Positions 717 to 54,229 of a stretch of DNA of 64,000 nt are shown piece after piece; position 1 is the stretch's first letter; the number at the start of each line of letters is the position of its first letter. Both the position numbers and the translations under genes were made by a program. Source of the DNA: Octopus vulgaris (lineage: Eukaryota); contig OX597821.1 of assembly GCA_951406725.2 (NCBI GenBank), positions 27,156,001-27,220,000 of the forward strand, written 5' to 3'. Below the pieces are notes generated by a model. That model searched no databases. It saw only the letters and a program-made list of their open reading frames with translations, and was not told where the DNA came from.

Positions 717-1275
717 GTAATATCGACATTGAAAGACTATAGCGAAAAAGAAGGCACTTTTGTTTTTCCAAACAGAGACAGAATGACTTTGGAAATTGTG
801 ATGTCAGTAAAAATCAAAATCAAGAACAGTAAGAACAACAATCGAACAACACCTCAAGCTTTATGGCTTCTTACTTAAGTCAAGTCCATTTACCTTTAGT
901 GTATCTATTCTATCACATGATACCCTGTAACATACACAATACTCTACCACCAAGGTTTGAACGTTAAAGAATTTCATCGGATAAGAAGAATAACGTAACA
1001 CTTGTATATATGTCGTATCACTGACAGGGGTATACACAAAAAAAAATTGATAAATACATACACACGTACTCGTGCACACGTGTACTTAGAAATATGCATA
1101 CACACAGACACACACATGCATAAATATGCCCACACATACATATACATCTGTTTTTAACGGAAGGTGTTTAATTTCTCAATTCTATTTGAAATACAACGAA
1201 ATCATTAATATATATTTTTCTCTTATTTTCTTTCAGATCTTGTAATTTTTATAATTAAAGTTGTTGTATTGGCCC

Positions 1276-1398: not shown

Positions 1399-2759
1399 AA
1401 AATCATGAAGAACATCACACATACCATATCCCGAACACCCACTAGGGTATCTCAAGCAACTTTATTAGCTTTATCATTGATAACGTTTTAAATTTTGTTA
1501 GCTCTCCAATCTTATTTATCAATTATTTAATGATAAATATTTGGACATGTATACATTTATGTATGTGTATGGATGTTTGTATGTATATATGCATGGATAT
1601 GTAAGTATGTATATATGTGTATGCGTCTACAAGTACGCATATGTTTGCGCTATATATATATGTGCGTATGTGTGTCTGTGTGTGAGCGCATGCGTTCATG
1701 CGTGCGTTTGTTTGTGTGTGATTGTATGCGTATGTATTCAATTGTAGTTTTCACATTCATTTTTTACATCCGAATTCTGCTTGCTACACATAGATATTTA
1801 CAGCGGGCATCTATGTATGCATTCAATTACAGGTAAGTGTATACGTCACATTTTCGTAGCATATAGCATATTTATTTAGCAACTCCCGTTACTTTTTACC
1901 AGAGTTGAACTTATCAGAGATGTACAACTCTTCACCCACGATGATCAGCGCTTTATGAGGGCATTCCTGGCATACTACCAACAATACAGAGTCGAGGCCT
2001 TCTTTTATCAGAAAATTTATCTGATATGAATGTATTAATGAGTTGGTAATAGTTGTAATGGACACTCATGTAGCTGCCAGTAAACGAAAGTACTTTAGTC
2101 AAATTACTTTATTAGTAGAGTCCAGAATCGATAAAACAATGCAGTTTTTTTCTGTGGAATATACACTACTTAGCAACATTTGAAATACAGAGATTCAGTT
2201 ATGAAAACTTTCCTCAAATGAATTGATTTGGGAAATGAGCTCGTAGTCCAGACGAATTTTGGATAGACGACCGGGTGCTGTATAATGTCTAAAAATGCCC
2301 AGATATTTAATGCGATTTTTATGAAAAATTTAATAGAATATAATTCGGTGTTAAATAGAAATACACTTATTCAATTATTGATATTTTTGTTATCCTTTCC
2401 TTGTGCACGGAGAGAACTGTACTACAAGCTTATATAATTATAGATTACACCATAATTACTAAGCTAATGATTAGAATCCCAGTAAAATTGTTAGTGAAAA
2501 TTAGCATGTTTAGAAAACTGAAGGAGAAAACGTTAGTGATGCGGTGCATATTACTTTCAAATATATTCTCATATATGATAGTAGTTTCGACGTTGATAAA
2601 GAACCCATATAACAAAGCGCAAACAAGATAAAGAACGAAAGAAACGAAAACGAAATCTGTCCATGATGTACTGAACTGTCGCTGGTTACGTTGTCAGCGA
2701 TATCTTCATGATGGAAGGGTTTCACCATTCGAAGTTAAATTCCATTATCATTTATAAGC

Positions 2760-3150: not shown

Positions 3151-4097
3151 AAAAGAAAGCAAGATATTAATAGTATCATCGACTCACTATGTAGCACTCA
3201 CGTTTAGCTGGTAACATTTCACTGTATTAATTCAAGTAACTACAAGTCTCACTTGATATACATATAGAACTTTACATAGTTGTAAATGAAAATTGTAATA
3301 TTATTGACACTTGATTTCACTAATCATGCTTCTTCTCATTATTCTTAATGGTTAAGTATAATGGTAAATCATATCTAATGTTGAACATTTTGAATTTTGT
3401 CATGAAGTGGGGATGATATTTTTAAAATCGTAAATATGATTTTTAGATCTTCGTATTAAGATATTAATACTGGCAGACAAAATAAAAATAACCCTTCCCT
3501 AAGCCCTATAGAGCAAGAAATTTCTAGTTTCTTGGTATGAATAAGTTGAAAATTAAACCCCTTTAGAAAAGATTCAAGTATATCGAAGAATGACTTTCTT
3601 AATTATTTGCACTCTGAGAAGAATTTTTCCCTAGATAAGACAACAATCTATCGAAAATTAATTGCCTTAATTATATGGACTCTATTCCTGAGTTGCCAAA
3701 AAACAAAGAAATGCGCGTAGCAAGTTAATTAAAACAGTTGAAAAATAATTGTGGAAAATTAGAGGGATTTAAACGTCGTTCATATATCAACATATGAAAA
3801 ACGTTGGCAAAATTAAATCTTAAACTATTATCTTTGATGCTGAAGTGAATTTTGTTCAAGGTGTGTACGTACTTTTAGAAGAGTGGTATAAATATGATTG
3901 TCCATAGCTATTTGTCAACATCCTGATACGAGAAGCAAAACCATTATGTTCCCCTCTAGCTGTGTATCTCGTTCTTTCTTTCTTTCTTTCTTTCTTTTTT
4001 GTTTCTGTCTGTTTTCTTTTATGTTTGTCATTTTGTTTCTTTCTCTCTTTTGCTTCTTTCTGTATATATATATATATATACATATATGTGTATATAT

Positions 4098-4146
<49 letters not shown>

Positions 4147-4318
4147 TGTGTATATATATATACATATATATACACACACACACATATATATATATATATG
4201 CATATACACACAGACAGAGAAAAAGAGAGACAAGTGTAGAGAGAGTGATAGTTAAAACGCAAGTATGAGTGTACAATCTAGTTCATATAAGAAAACAAAT
4301 AAAGATATCATGTTTTTG

Positions 4319-4321
<3 letters not shown>

Positions 4322-4374
<53 letters not shown>
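4322..4374. repeat. (ATT)n microsatellite
   Basis: Direct reading. Confidence 0.95.
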
Positions 4375-5206
4375 CTTTCCTTTCCAAATGCATTAGATTC
4401 GTAATTGGCATCCAATGACAGCTTGAAAATATATAACTACAGGATATCAATTTGATATCCTCATTAAAATGAATACCCTCAAAACACCATAGCTAACCAC
4501 CTTTGTATAAAAAAAAAAAATATTATTTTCTCCATTTATTTATTATGACGTAGAAAAGTGTTGCTCATATCACTTTCAAGAAGATTAACTCTATACGTGC
4601 CTTTATGTAGGTAAAAATGAAACCTAACATCCTCGTCCCCTTATATCTTTTAACAGATCACAATCTCTTCAAATTTTTAAGGGTTTCATTTGATTCAGTA
4701 TAAAATATTCTCTATAGAATTTACCTCATTAATCTATTTATTGGTCTTTGGAAAACAAACCAGAGACAAATGAGCCAAACAAAGTAGTAGTTGAGTCTGT
4801 TGGAGAGTGTCCTAGCTGCGTCTATGTGGTCATGACACTATATAGCATATCTACACCAATTTACACGCTAATGCCTTAAAATATATAGTGTTCAGTAAGT
4901 AATATTCTTCTAAGTACGCAAGCTGAATAAACTCAAATGGGGGGTTGCGCCTTCTATTGTATTTCCTCATGATCGTCGCTAACCTGCAACTGAATAACGT
5001 AACAATAACACAGAAAAAAGCTTACAAAATAGAGACTTTTCATACGCCGATGCACACTTTATATGCCAGATAACAAATCACTGTATATTGAAGTGTGAAG
5101 TGCAGGCTTCAACTAAAGGGTAGCGAAGCATATCTGGGACACTGGATCCGTGCATTATGATTTACCATTCAGTTAGCTTCATATAAATAAATACGAACAA
5201 CATTAC

Positions 5207-5272
<66 letters not shown>

Positions 5273-5507
5273 GTCTGAGGAGAGTAATTTTCCTTTTTGT
5301 GCCTTATAATTTAACACATTCACCGGTAAAATTTCCACTTATTTCTTATTTTTATTTTCCGTAAATTTTCGTTGCGTCTTGCAACCTTTTCAATAGTCTT
5401 GACTCTGTCCGATATTTACACTGCTTTCCTTTTTGTTTGTTTGTGCTCATGATTGTGGGTTAGTGTGTGTGTTTGTGTGCTTATGCATGCATTCATGTAC
5501 GCATTTA

Positions 5508-5543
<36 letters not shown>

Positions 5544-5685
5544 TGTATGTATGTATGTATGTATGTATGTATGTATGTATGCATGTGTGGGTATGTATAT
5601 ATTTGTGTGTATGCATATATACATATGTATATATGTATGTATGTATGTGTGTGCATCTGTATGTATGTATTCTGCATAGTCATGT

Positions 5686-5907
5686 AGGAACATTGCGGAA
5701 CGACTAAATGAACATCTGAGATAATATGACGACAAAAAACAGTTTTCCATAATCTACCAACAGGCCAAAGACCCCCATGGAGGCAACATGGGTCAACTTG
5801 ACATCCGCATCTTATCCAAGCACCCAAAAGACCCAACACTCAGACAAATACAAGAGTACGTCCTTATAAATGAAACCTCTCCAATACTAAATAGGAAAGA
5901 TACATAG
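5686..5907 (+). pseudogene. PLE GIY-YIG endonuclease C-terminal remnant (not in the ORF track)
   Basis: Manual translation RNIAERLNEHLR*YDDKKQFSIIYQQAKDPHGGNMGQLDIRILSKHPKDPTLRQIQEYVLINETSPILNRKDT* matches the PLE pattern ER..EH...H..HGG...RQI.E...LN.K. Confidence 0.75.
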
Positions 5908-6651
5908 TAGATATCATATCTCCATACTTCCAGTTTACACTGGTAGAGTAGAATTGTTAGTGAACTCTTATGCAGATAGAGGTATGTATGTATGTATGTA
6001 TGTATGTATGTATGTATGTATGTATGTATGTATGTTTGTATGTGTGGGTGTGAGTGTGTGTATATACACGTGTAATTTTTTTGTTTGCATGTAAGCATAG
6101 GGATATGAAAATAAACAGATCAACATACAGACGGACATGTACATAGGTTATAAAAACAGAGAAGCACATATACGCAAATGGAGACTGAAACACATGACCT
6201 TATACATACACACACACACACTTTACTCCACACAAGGACACATATGGAGACACGGGTCTACACATATAGTGATGCACAACCATACATACAAATATGGCAC
6301 ATAGTTGCAAAACACATACACACACAGAAGGAGACAGAAGAGCATACAAATACAAACACACGTTCACACTCCCCTTCCCCCCCACACACACAGGAAATAC
6401 ACAAAAACGGACATGCAAGCACATGAATATGCAGAATACATACATATATACATAAGCATACACACATGTATATAAAACACTCACATGCATACATACATAC
6501 ATACATACATACATACATACATACATACATACATACATACACATATACATACATACGTACATGCCTGCATAGGCACACACACATACTGACCCACACACAT
6601 GCGCACAAGCAAACAAAAAGGAACGCAGTGTAAATATCGGACAGAGTCAAG

Positions 6652-6690
6652 CTTATTGAAAAGGTGGCAAGACGCAACGAAAATTTTAGG
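6652..6690 (+). ncRNA. Hammerhead-ribozyme-like motif, U3-A8 variant
   Basis: CUUA-UUGAAAA-G-GUGGC(AAGAC)GCAAC-GAA-AAUU-U-UAGG. Other copies at 5359-5397(-) and 54165-54199(+) have a perfect GUUGC/GCAAC helix II. Confidence 0.6.
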
Positions 6691-7769
6691 AAAATAAAAA
6701 TAAGAAAGAAAGTGGAAATTTTACCGGTGAGTGTGTTAGATTATAAGGCAAAAAAAGAGAATGACACAACCGAATATGCTTCAACACATGAACCCATATA
6801 AAGAATCTTGCAAACCAAATCCAAAAACGAAACACACACACATATAGATTCATACATAAATACATATATATATGACCGTATGTATATATGTGAGGCTAAT
6901 ATGTCTGTGTGTGTATGTCTGTATGCCTGTGTGCGTTCATGCGCAAACACTTGTGTTTAGCAGTTGATTAGTGCTTGTGCTTGCGGTATGTTCACGTGTG
7001 TATGATTGTGTGTGTGTCCATGACCCTATACTGTACCTGTGTATCGTTCAAATATATAGTTCAAATTTTTCAGAAAATAAAAGACGAAGACAGATGAAGG
7101 AACAAGCATGTATATTAGTTTAATGCTCGGGAAGAATGAAAATTTCTGCGACAGAAAGGATTAAGAGGAAAAAAACAATCGCAAAAAGAACACCATCCCC
7201 TCCAAAAAACAAACAACGGAAGGAGTACGACAGGAAACAACGAGAAAGTATGTGTAGTGATTAGAGATTCAAATTGATGAAATGGCCAAAAGGAAAAAGC
7301 TGGATGAAAGGGAGATAATAACTTAGGCACAAAAGCTCACTTTAGTGTGTCTGTGTGAATGGGGCAGGTGCTTGAGTGTGTATGTGTGTTCGAGCTTAAA
7401 ATTATGTGGGCCTGTGTGTGTGTTTATGTATAAGTAACCTACTGCGTACATTTTGTTGAGCAGTGTACTGGTGTGATTTTGTGTGTGCATATGGAGGTGT
7501 GTACATATGCGTGGGGTAATCATGTGTGTGCCTAAACGAACGGGCCTAAGAATATGGAATACAAACAGGAGGATGCAATACAACAACAACAAACATGAGA
7601 AACGGAAAGGCAAAGCATGGAACGTGTAAAGAGAATATGAATACAAAGATATAAGCAAAATGTTCAACTCGATTAGGTAAAGTTCGAAGGAATACTTTGC
7701 TTTGAAGGACAAAACTGCGTCGCTGGTGATACGTGTTGAAAAGTCTTTGGTAAGTTTACAAATAGTTCA

Positions 7770-9120
7770 TTATAGTTCAGATGTATATAGATTTACACAG
7801 CCTGGTGGGCCAATGTACCCGGCAACCACTACGAATCGTAGTGGCGTATGTAGATGAAGGAGTAGTTGGTGTGTGTGATGTTGTTGCTGGTGATTGCAGT
7901 GGTGTAGTGTTTGTTTTATGTTGTCCTTTTGATATGGGGGTGTGTTTATGAGGTGGTGTTGTATCACTGTCTGTGTATGCCTGCTTAAGCCTTTCTGTTG
8001 GGACAGTTTCCTTTTTATCATTAATGTCTACCGTGTATAGTTCGTCTGTGTGCGCCAGGACGCAATAGGGTCCCATATATGGAGGTGAGAGAGGGGTTTT
8101 CATAGTGTCGTTTCGTAGAAACACATGGGTCAAATTGGTGTCATGTTGACAACGGTGGCAGTTCTTGCATGAATTTTCGAAGTCTGTGTATGGCCACGAA
8201 AGTGGAGTGACATAAACGAGTTCTGCTGGGGAATACCGAGGTACTCCTTTATCGAAGCTCGACAGCCAAGGAGAACTATTGGAAGATATTCGCTCCAAAG
8301 CAGCCGATCAGTGTACGCACGCAGAGCAGCTTTCATTTGACAGTGGAATCGTTCCACAAAATCGTTGGATAGTGGATGGTAAATGGTGGTTCGAATACGA
8401 CGTGAACCTATGGTCTTCGTGAGCAGGTGGAAGAGTTGCGATTCAAACTGTTTTCCACGGTCAGGTGTGATGGTGATAAAGACACCGTACCGTGATGTCC
8501 ATCCTTTGAAAAAAGCTTTGTCAACAGATTCTGCAGTGATATCTACTAAATAAATAGCTTCCGACTAACGTGTGAAACGATCGATGTAGATGAGCAGGTA
8601 GGTATATCCCTGGCTGACTGGCCAAGGTCCGTCGAGGTCCGACAAGGTCGATGCGTACATGGCTGAAGCGCATATCTAGTGTTAAATGTGTCTAGGCGTG
8701 AAAGGATGTGCTTATGCACCTTTGAATTCTGACAGAAAAGGCAGGAAGCTGACCAGGCAGTGATATCTCGTCTCATATTTGCCCCAAAGAATCTAGCCGA
8801 AATGAGTTTCACTGTGGCGTTATGCAGTGCTGAAGACTGTTTACTTGTGGGTCTCCGGAAGACAAGGACGAGGAGAATTCGTGGAAATATCGCACAAAGT
8901 CTTTGCGTCAGCTGTAGGTACGAGAAGTACTTGACGTTGCATGTGGCAAAGGCGGGTGAGGTTATATCAATTGTCTCTGAGGTTGATCTTTAGCCAGGAG
9001 ATGTAGGTCAGTGTATGTGGGTGACTACAACAAATTAAGTGGTAGGCACGATAAGGCGTCTGCTGCAGTGTTATGTATATCAGAGATATTGTGGATGTCT
9101 GGTACAAACTAAAGGGTTCG
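7770..9120 (-). mobile_element. Gypsy-type LTR retrotransposon pol remnant (RNase H end + integrase), frameshifted
   Basis: Minus-strand motifs in Gypsy order: NTAADALS, MRRDITAWSASCLFCQ (zinc-finger part), YHPLSNDFVERFH..MKAALR, WSEYLPIVLLGCR, PPYMGPYCV (GPY/F). No LTRs identified. Confidence 0.88.
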
Positions 9121-28499: not shown

Positions 28500-30179
28500 G
28501 TATTGTCATTAGCGAAGATGTCCTACTAGCCATAGATTAAGTGGACACAAACTCAACTGCTGGTCCAGATGATTTGCCAGCAATCCTCCTCAAAGCATGT
28601 AAGCATGCCCTGGCAAAACCCCTCAAGATTCTCTCCCCGAGCTTTCTTGCGAATGGCCAACTGCCAATCAGGCTAAAGGAGGGAATAATATGCCCAATGC
28701 ATAAAGGGGAAAGTAGAGCAGATGCCCCAAACTATAGGCCTATCTCTCTGACTTCACACATCAGCAAAGTCATGGAACGGATAGTCAGAAAGAAACTAAT
28801 CGCATTCCTTGAGGAAAATAACTTGCTGAGTGATACCCAGCATGGTTTTCGACCAGGTAGGAGCTGCTTGACCCAGCTCTTACAGCATTATGACTGGGTT
28901 TTGAGGCAGTTACTCAACAAATTAAATGTGGACGTAATCTACCTTGATTTTGCAAAAGCTTTTGACAAGGTGGATCATGGTATGATATGCCACAAACTAC
29001 GTGACCTCGGCATAGCTGGAAAACTTAGAGTGTGGTTGCATGACTTCCTGAAAGATAGGAGTCAGGCAGTAGTGGTTATGAACACACAAATTGTGAGCGG
29101 TGTTCCACAGGGCACTGTCTTGGGACCACTGCTTTTTATAGTGGCCCTCTCAGATATGCCCTCAAATGCCCGGATAGCCACTCTGGCCAGCTATGCAGAC
29201 GATACGAAAGTCTCGCAGAAAATACAGAACCTCAGCGATGTTGCAGAACCTGCAGCAGGAGTTGGACTCTATCTACAAATGGGCTGAGGATAATAATATG
29301 CAGTTTAATCCTGAAAAATTCCAGGCCCTGCGCTACCAGCACCCAAAACTGAATATTAAACTTACAGGATACACCGGTCCACAGGGAATTTCAATCCCAG
29401 AGCCTAAGTCTGTGAGGGACCTGGGTATCGACATGAGTGATGATACCTCTTTCCAAGTGCACATTACCAGGATGGCGACAAAGTGCAGACGACTGGCTGG
29501 GTGAATCCTAAGAACATTCAGAACCAGAGATAAGGAAACCATGATGGTCCTCTGGCGGACATTCGTCCTCAGTCGCCTGGATTACTGCTCACAGCTATGG
29601 TCACCCACCAGTGTAAAATTAACAGCAGACCTTGAAGCAATCCAGAGAAGATTCACAAAGCAGATAATCTCTTTGCAACAGCTCAGCTACTGGGAAAGGT
29701 TGACACAGCTAAGACTCTACTCCATGGAGAGAAGACGGGATAGGTATGCAGTAATATATGTCTGGAAGATCCTGGAAAGAAATGTGCCAAATTTTGGCAT
29801 TGTAAGCTACACCAATGTTAGAACGGGACGACACTGCATAGTGCCGAAGATCCCAGCAATGCCATCACACTTCAGGACCAGCTTCTGCAACAGCCTGGGT
29901 TTCAAGGGCCCACAGCTTTTTAATATTCTCCCAAAGAGTCTGAGGAACTTGCACAAAGTAGATGTAGCAGTTTTTAAATCAAACCTGGACATCTTCCTGT
30001 CAAGTGTCCCAGATGAACCTACCTCACGGCAAGAGGTGCAAATGAGAGTAGCTATATCAAACTCCATTCTTCTCCAAGTGCCACATATTAGATGAGGTTC
30101 GTCGTAATAACAGTGTAGCACAAAACGGCGGTGCATCAGCATGGCCGCAGCTCTGAGCTGAAACTAGAAAAAAAAAAAA
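28500..30179 (+). mobile_element. 5'-truncated CR1/L2-group LINE ORF2 (RT) with frameshift and stop, 3' UTR and poly-A
   Basis: GPDDLP, NYRPISLTS, QHGFRPGRSC, YLDFAKAFDKVDH, GVPQGTVLGPLLF, SYADDTK, VRDLGI, RLDYCSQLWSP, LEAIQRRFTK. Ends gctgaaactag(A)n. Confidence 0.93.
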
Positions 30180-44574: not shown

Positions 44575-44609
<35 letters not shown>

Positions 44610-44611
<2 letters not shown>

Positions 44612-45097
44612 CTAATACTGAATTATTTTTAAGGCTTAAAAAGTATTGATGAATTTAATACAGAACTTTGTCCACCATTCGTAGTTATCAAAATATATAG
44701 TAACTGTAGTGCAGTTGCAATTTAAACTTTGGGAACTCTCAACGATGCTTTAGCGTGCGCGACTTTGCTTGTCTATATGTGTCTAAAACATAAAATTAGA
44801 AAGTGCATGCGGTTTTATGATATAGTTGACAGTTATATATTTATATATATATATAGTTGACTGTTATATATATATATATATATATATAACTAATACTGAA
44901 TTATTTTTAAGGCTTAAAAAGTATTGATGAATTTAATACAGAACTTTGTCCACCATTCGTAGTTATCAAAATATATAGTAACTGTAGTGCAGTTGCAATT
45001 TAAACTTTGGGAACTCTCAACGATGCTTTAGCGTGCGCGACTTTGCTTGTCTATATGTGTCTAAAACATAAAATTAGAAAGTGCATGCGGTTTTATG
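44610..45097. repeat. Tandem direct duplication, 278-bp offset
   Basis: 44610-44819 appears identical to 44888-45097, and both are preceded by tatagttgactgttatata(ta)n. Confidence 0.92.
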
Positions 45098-54027: not shown

Positions 54028-54229
54028 TGTTGTGTCTGGGGAGAGGCATTTCCTTTTTGTGTCTTATAATGTAACGCACTCACCGGTAAAATTTCCACTT
54101 TTTCTTATTTTTGTTTTCCTAAAATGTTCGTTGAATCTTGCAACCTTTTCAATAGTCTTGACTCTTGAAAAGGTTGCAAGACGCAACGAAAATTTTAGGA
54201 AAACAAAGATAAGAAAAAAGTAGAAATTT
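54028..54229. mobile_element. Fold-back fragment of the 5268-6768 PLE family
   Basis: 54028-54164 matches 5268-5405. Arms 54088-54152 and 54165-54229 fold back beside the U3-A8 core. Confidence 0.85.

Follow-up and report, generated by a model that had tools for sequence, protein, structure and literature searches.

A stretch of 64,000 nucleotides of Octopus vulgaris DNA (GenBank assembly GCA_951406725.2, contig OX597821.1, positions 27,156,001 to 27,220,000 of the forward strand; hereafter the window) very probably harbours the remnant of a 5'-truncated Penelope-like element (PLE) that retains the C-terminal part of its endonuclease, carries its own 3' end a second time in inverted orientation, is likely inert, likely arose by one target-primed insertion and bears damaged U3-A8 hammerheads (Table 1). 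The evidence comprises the endonuclease fragment, the inverted arms, the hammerhead motif, its constancy within the family, covariation in related elements and the damage to both copies of the motif. An earlier note, made from the letters of the window, had drawn attention to this region. The window is AT-rich and packed with microsatellites.

Table 1. Positions of the PLE remnant, its hammerhead motifs and a second insertion of the same family in the window.
Feature	Position	Strand	Basis or details
Flanking (TA)29	5210..5267	.	TRF
Left arm, inverted copy of the 3' region (about 6421-6777): tail, hammerhead, (TATG)n	5268..5685	-	blastn, alignments, junction
Left minimal hammerhead	5360..5396	-	U3 5393, A8 5388, helix II 5/5 pairs, AAUU 5367-5364, U17 5363
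PLE GIY-YIG endonuclease, C-terminal half	5686..5907	+	profile, phmmer
3' untranslated region (likely), enlarged by microsatellites	5908..6420	+	TRF
Right arm: 3' pseudo-LTR and tail	6421..6777 (ends approximate)	+	blastn, alignments
Right minimal hammerhead	6652..6690	+	U3 6656, A8 6661, extra G 6663, AAUU 6682-6685, 4-bp helix I
Two back-to-back stubs, second family insertion	54030..54229	.	Hammerhead U3 at 54152 (-) and 54165 (+)

The endonuclease fragment (RNIAERLNEH...LRQIQE...PILN) spans 73 codons, with an in-frame TAA at 5722-5724 and a stop at 5905-5907. It starts at a conserved R directly after the absent GIY-YIG motif and retains the conserved R, E, H, RQ, E and N columns, with a Q at one conserved H position; H10 and H31 are kept, and the cysteines of the CCHH set fall in the deleted part. 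The Pfam GIY-YIG model matched the peptide at E 0.14, which is weak by itself. On the other hand, phmmer with the peptide returned 50 matches at E<=1e-3, and a profile built from 20 of these relatives, with the window peptide left out, matched 5668-5901 at E 4e-26, the sole significant match within the window. Pfam GIY-YIG cut-offs were passed by 7 of the 28 phmmer relatives scanned. By sequence resemblance, then, the fragment at 5686-5907 represents the C-terminal half of a GIY-YIG endonuclease of the PLE type. This bears out the earlier note, which had read it as such in a PLE remnant and had named a lack of match to PLE endonucleases as the outcome that would speak against it.

The profile match covers model positions 592-669 of 692 and is followed by the stop, which places the endonuclease at the end of the ORF, as in the relatives P0044 and L009; assignment to the Naiad clade, with its N-terminal endonuclease, was rejected on this ground. 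A tblastn search with P0044 matched 5668-5892 only, and RT is absent from the truncated copy. RT-type motifs (YVDD, Q..GG.IG) lie ahead of the endonuclease in P0044, L009 and L012; the Pfam RVT_1 model gave a weak match for L009 (E 0.077) and none for P0044 or L012. The relatives display a C..CxxC linker, CC within the GIY-YIG region, two histidines and an RQ..EA..I....P.LN end, and the C and H columns (CCHH) are invariant or nearly so among 15 of them. One relative at 50% identity, P0006, is named as an Octopus bimaculoides protein. A PDB sequence search with P0044 gave no matches, and a word-indexed protein search for longer relatives gave six candidates, none of them significant.

The linker, the CC, the histidines and the R...EA..I....P.LN end of the relatives look alike, by eye, to those of Nematis-like PLEs (CX2-5CxxC linker) in Fig. 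S2 of Craig et al. 2021 (PMC8557442), and the inverted 5' copy, the tail and the (TA)n preference described in the part of that paper considered here are shared with the octopus element. The RT motif differs, being GG.IG in the relatives and AMG in the Nematis and Neptune rows compared. Judged by eye from its endonuclease, the element may resemble the Nematis-like lineage. Hydra-clade PLEs lack CCHH and have CxxC and CxH motifs around the conserved E and N. Membership in that clade was rejected, as cysteines are missing from the surroundings of E and N in the peptide and CCHH is kept in its relatives; in addition, the hammerhead row of Hydra-1_oBim differs in its helices and has a C3-G8 core.

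The fragment is flanked by two arms in opposite orientation. blastn aligned 5293-5671 with 6757-6396 (83% over 384 columns, E 8e-110), with 153 of the 167 aligned bases of the non-repetitive portion identical (91.6%), and the arm alignment scored 254 against a maximum of 32 among 200 dinucleotide shuffles. The (TATG)n tract at 5495-5670 in the left arm is the complement of (CATA)n at 6436-6562. These data confirm that the 3' region of the element is present a second time in inverted orientation, the (TATG)n tract included; of the span 5268..6768 previously given, the inverted arms stand, and the right end has to be moved to about 6777. The left arm meets the endonuclease fragment at 5685/5686 with zero spacer. 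The left end likely inserted into the adjoining (TA)29, and AT-rich sequence was also reached by the loose-end consensus of the family, obtained from contigs compared with 5255-5480. Behind the right arm, neither (TA)n nor a target-site duplication was visible, and the right-arm tail has an 11-base deletion relative to the copy at 54 kb. A reading as a DNA transposon with terminal inverted repeats was discarded, as the peptide between the arms belongs to a PLE endonuclease and the 3' end of the element makes up one of the arms. In the 3' region we also observed a block at 5982-6090, consisting of (GTAT)n, with (GTAT)15 at 5982-6043, and a TG-rich part. It is oriented as the tract of the left arm, opposite to the AC-rich remainder of the 3' region, is 78% identical to the reverse complement of the right-arm repeat, and is possibly an additional small inversion.

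Both arms contain the minimal type I hammerhead motif UUGAAAA-G-GUUGC-AAGAC-GCAAC-GAA-AAUU-U, that is, a UUGAAAA core with U3-A8, an extra G, a 5-bp helix II, GAA, an AAUU helix III and U17. The copy in the right arm lies on the sense strand relative to the ORF, and its cut site is predicted after U17 at 6686, following the numbering and architecture in the part of PMC4209133 considered here. At <=3 mismatches, the 30-nt motif occurs four times in the window and in none of 100 shuffles. None of these four copies passes a strict hammerhead descriptor. The left hammerhead has lost helix I through private changes at 5362 and 5361, positions at which 96.5-99.5% of the family depth shows other letters in all four sequencing runs described below, and the right one has a G-A mismatch in helix II (6666/6676). 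With none of the four passing the descriptor, activity of the window copies is not supported. The damage to both arm motifs was absent from the earlier note, as were the two further copies at 54152 (-) and 54165 (+). The latter belong to an insertion that adjoins (TA)n, begin just 12 bases apart, and are both damaged, with a change in the core and loss of a closing pair. The arms are 88-90.5% identical to these copies. A relaxed scan also returned a UUGAAAA...GAAA match at 3546 (+) with a 4-bp A-U-rich stem; it fails the strict descriptor and is likely due to chance. An Rfam search of 4000-8500 at E<=1 gave 45 matches, none to a hammerhead and nearly all to microRNA models on simple repeats, and a search of 19 related metagenome loci gave two irrelevant matches, indicating that Rfam misses such minimal motifs.

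The family was surveyed in sequencing contigs of four runs from four organisms, compared with 5255-5480. Contigs aligned in numbers of 11,655, 13,081, 7,447 and 3,118 per run, and the family is very abundant in all four organisms. Neither U3 nor A8 has a variant at >=5% in any of the four runs. Within the motif, changes of CpG type reach 4-17%, and one run also has changes at G10.1 (13%) and 15.2 (11%). In the family majority, helix I (3 bp) and helix II (5 bp) are both intact. The earlier proposal of a compensatory U3-A8 core therefore holds across the family, and neither of the findings said to count against it, a non-complementary 3-8 pair or an unconserved helix II, was encountered there. 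Helix II shows zero compensatory change within the family, and the constancy of helix II and of the motif may reflect simple descent; that the motif has few non-CpG variants is no more than suggestive (p 0.06). A dip in depth at 5359-5366 is consistent with the private mismatches of the reference.

A core of about 110 bases (5294-5406) has a depth 13-25 times that just upstream, an excess that does not give a copy number and stems in part from the alignment. The fall in depth upstream of 5406 blends true 5' ends with subfamily indels, inseparably. Loose ends accumulate at 5406 in all four runs, and joints from 5404 to 5294, seen in a few contigs of two of the runs, suggest head-to-tail units. 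Among the 24 loose-end rows listed of 687, there was no copy starting at the cut site. Several opposite-strand joints in the family contigs correspond to other fold-back copies.

We then turned to 19 metagenome loci that carry a related endonuclease and screened them with the strict hammerhead descriptor. Four loci passed, on the sense strand behind the ORF, as compared with 0.15 hits per shuffled set. L001, whose endonuclease match is the best of the 19 (46%, E 2e-18), has a sense-strand hammerhead with an identical UUGAAAA core and differing helices approximately 110 nt past the endonuclease match; an endonuclease and a hammerhead are thus seen in one element in both the window copy and L001. 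L004 and L012 have C3-G8, also on the sense strand. L008 contains a candidate A3-U8 hammerhead at approximately 1707-1745 (+), with a 3-bp helix I, a 4-bp helix II and a CCAGG insert, approximately 390 nt behind a related endonuclease; it is a single example. Across related PLEs, the 3-8 pair is U-A, C-G or, with some probability in L008, A-U. A literature search for A3-U8 hammerheads found no mention of them, and one on 3-8 mutagenesis was likewise fruitless. The hammerhead lies approximately 750 nt from the stop at the octopus locus, as compared with about 110-130 nt in L001, L004 and L012. A credible hammerhead is absent from 14 of the 19 loci, five of which have less than 200 nt downstream. 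Relaxed matches in L005, L006, L010, L016 and L017 and two in L008 were discarded as chance. We also observed a hammerhead-like sequence in L013 at approximately 1219-1265 (+), with a possible 6-bp helix I; its first core box seems to have gained an A, which may reflect decay or a sequencing error and makes the assignment of its 3-8 pair ambiguous.

How the motif could fold was examined by structure prediction. The AAUU of helix III is predicted to pair only between two same-strand copies, and weakly. The earlier statement that this helix needs two copies was thus upheld: AAUU is present in both arms, and there is no monomeric helix III. Lying on opposite strands, the two arms are antisense copies that are unable to be each other's dimer partners, and a reading in which they make up the dimer had to be abandoned. 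In a read-through RNA, the arms are instead predicted to pair along their length in a single duplex, with the motif buried inside it, with a pairing probability of 0.96 between the right motif and the left arm and a fold of -651 kcal/mol for the whole plus strand. The AAUU duplex was calculated at +2.2 kcal/mol and the active-like dimer of the right copy at -0.8 kcal/mol, against -8.6 kcal/mol for the minimum-energy dimer.

The layout of the locus is likely to stem from one target-primed insertion. Reverse transcription would have started in the tail at (TA)n or an AT-rich nick and halted inside the endonuclease, after which another cDNA of this 3' end, shorter than the first, would have been joined in inverted orientation on the 5' side. 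Alternatively, two independent insertions might have occurred, a family stub landing inverted beside an older truncated element through an endonuclease directed at microsatellites or at its own sequence. In favour of this are the great abundance of the family and the presence of (TA)n at the left end only, and the lack of a visible target-site duplication also speaks against one event. Moreover, the identity between the arms (91.6%) is near that with the unlinked copies (88-90.5%), so that the case for a single event rests mainly on a shared rare state and the exact junction. Both arms have A at 5412, where T is found in more than 99% of the family depth; since A accounts for less than 1%, one insertion event is favoured. 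The lack of any spacer between left arm and endonuclease fragment also argues against separate insertions, as does the agreement of the layout with a described PLE pattern, the part of PMC8557442 considered here reporting that PLEs frequently have a 5'-truncated copy in inverted orientation at their 5' end. Taking these points into account, we regard two insertions as improbable. It is still less conceivable, and in our judgement hardly credible, that the host has kept the locus as a source of fold-back RNA that silences the family by way of double-stranded or small RNAs, the hammerheads having no role. The very stable predicted duplex of the arms would suit such a role, but the same folding is expected of any inverted PLE insertion, and the arms are approximately 8% diverged, with the differences left unpaired.

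As for the hammerhead itself, under the single-insertion explanation that of an intact parent, located in the pseudo-LTR, would likely cleave after U17 only as a protein-assisted same-strand dimer, because its helix III is just the self-complementary AAUU, and U3-A8 would take the place of the C3-G8 core pair. The assistance by protein is assumed by analogy with the Anolis PLE (PAc, of the Poseidon clade), whose hammerhead cleavage is described in the part of PMC11167929 considered here as protein-assisted and as dispensable for insertion in vitro. A PLE hammerhead and an optional tail are common to PAc and the octopus element, and the model of the mechanism given there includes internal RT starts; PAc differs in its C3-G8 core, its clade and its intact ORF. 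We also considered the possibility that, even in intact members, the hammerhead-shaped structure no longer cuts and serves as a protein-binding or RT-positioning signal. Helix I of the family has just three pairs and helix III A-U pairs only, and the active-like dimer of the right copy lies approximately 8 kcal/mol above the minimum. In addition, the Anolis PLE inserts in vitro without cleavage, with no RNA-seq ends at the cut site in the part of PMC11167929 considered here, and none of the loose ends listed for the family starts there. Nevertheless, the 3-8 pair changes identity between families yet stays complementary, and in vitro activity of U3-A8 ribozymes is reported in the part of PMC3088659 considered here. 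A non-cutting signal, which is compatible with the structural part of the single-insertion explanation, is thus possible, though we consider it doubtful.

Many features of the locus have counterparts in the literature. The parts of Cervera and de la Pena 2014 (PMC4209133) considered here describe the U3-A8 variant, for which S. mansoni gave about 1,300 hits, as well as an extra base, a palindrome, opposite-strand pairs 100-700 bp apart and low dimer activity in vitro. In its Fig. S3, the S. mansoni Cercyon PLE has the exact UUGAAAA core with a 3-bp helix I, the S. japonicum relative of this PLE has C3-G8, and the PLE of the oyster C. gigas has the AAUU palindrome; according to the legend of Fig. 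S4A, the 5' end of a 5'-truncated PLE bears a further hammerhead in opposite-strand orientation. Compared with these minimal hammerheads, the octopus locus shares UUGAAAA (the S. mansoni (4) row), the extra base at 9/10.1, G10.1-C11.1, the palindromic 15.2-16.2, the short helix I, the pseudo-LTR location and the opposite-strand copy. It differs in its helix sequences, with a 5-bp helix II, in its host, in the damage to both copies and probably in PLE clade, and there is no cephalopod among the alignment rows compared. Several natural U3-A8 hammerheads are also given in the part of Perreault et al. 2011 (PMC3088659) considered here, which cites Przybilski and Hammann 2007 for the in vitro activity of such ribozymes; the core-pair compensation is the same, and the passage is not on PLE minimal motifs. 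The novelty implied by the earlier note is thus lost: U3-A8 appears in both of these papers, and the AAUU palindrome and the inverted second hammerhead appear in PMC4209133. Metazoan non-LTR retrozymes (bioRxiv 10.64898/2026.07.22.740005, in the part considered here) share a type I hammerhead derived from PLE pseudo-LTRs. They are same-strand tandem repeats, whereas the octopus locus is inverted and has an endonuclease fragment, and a retrozyme of this kind was rejected for the locus because its copies are inverted. The motif string is absent from the supplement of Craig et al. (PMC8557442), and no paper on the family was found in a search that covers few subscription journals and excludes Repbase and Dfam.

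Other features of the window were recorded along the way. A broken LINE-type reverse transcriptase lies at 28541-30095 (+), with a Pfam RVT_1 match at E 2.7e-24 for 28541-29284. A frameshifted peptide at 7777-8989 (-) is, we presume from its appearance by eye, a remnant of a Gypsy-type integrase; the two pieces of it that were scanned gave no Pfam match at E<=0.01. A perfect 278-base tandem duplication (1.8 copies, 100%) at 44587-45097, between (TA)-rich tracts, is either a young duplication or an assembly artefact.

In itself, the locus is likely inert transposon debris, a decayed member of a new PLE family of a kind already known, and its notable features (U3-A8, AAUU and the inverted second hammerhead) were published in 2011 and 2014. 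Its value, which is modest, lies in connecting one specific PLE lineage, which bears an endonuclease, with a very abundant repeat that has a U3-A8 hammerhead, and in adding natural covariation of the 3-8 pair for that lineage. A further proposal is speculative, and we think it rather unlikely to prove right as a whole. According to it, the locus would reveal which autonomous element is the partner of a cephalopod repeat that is hyper-abundant. A Nematis-like lineage would switch its 3-8 pair among C-G, U-A and A-U and would have spawned a stub of approximately 112 bases, little more than a hammerhead. This stub would also form head-to-tail retrozyme units, far shorter than the full pseudo-LTR region, in which two same-strand U3-A8 motifs dimerise in cis. 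The proposal is drawn from the 13-25-fold core depth, the loose ends at 5406 in all four runs, the 5404-5294 joints in two of them and the A3-U8 candidate of L008. If it were true and the units cleaved, the short head-to-tail unit would offer a natural system of small size in which to test the dimer model of PLE hammerheads.
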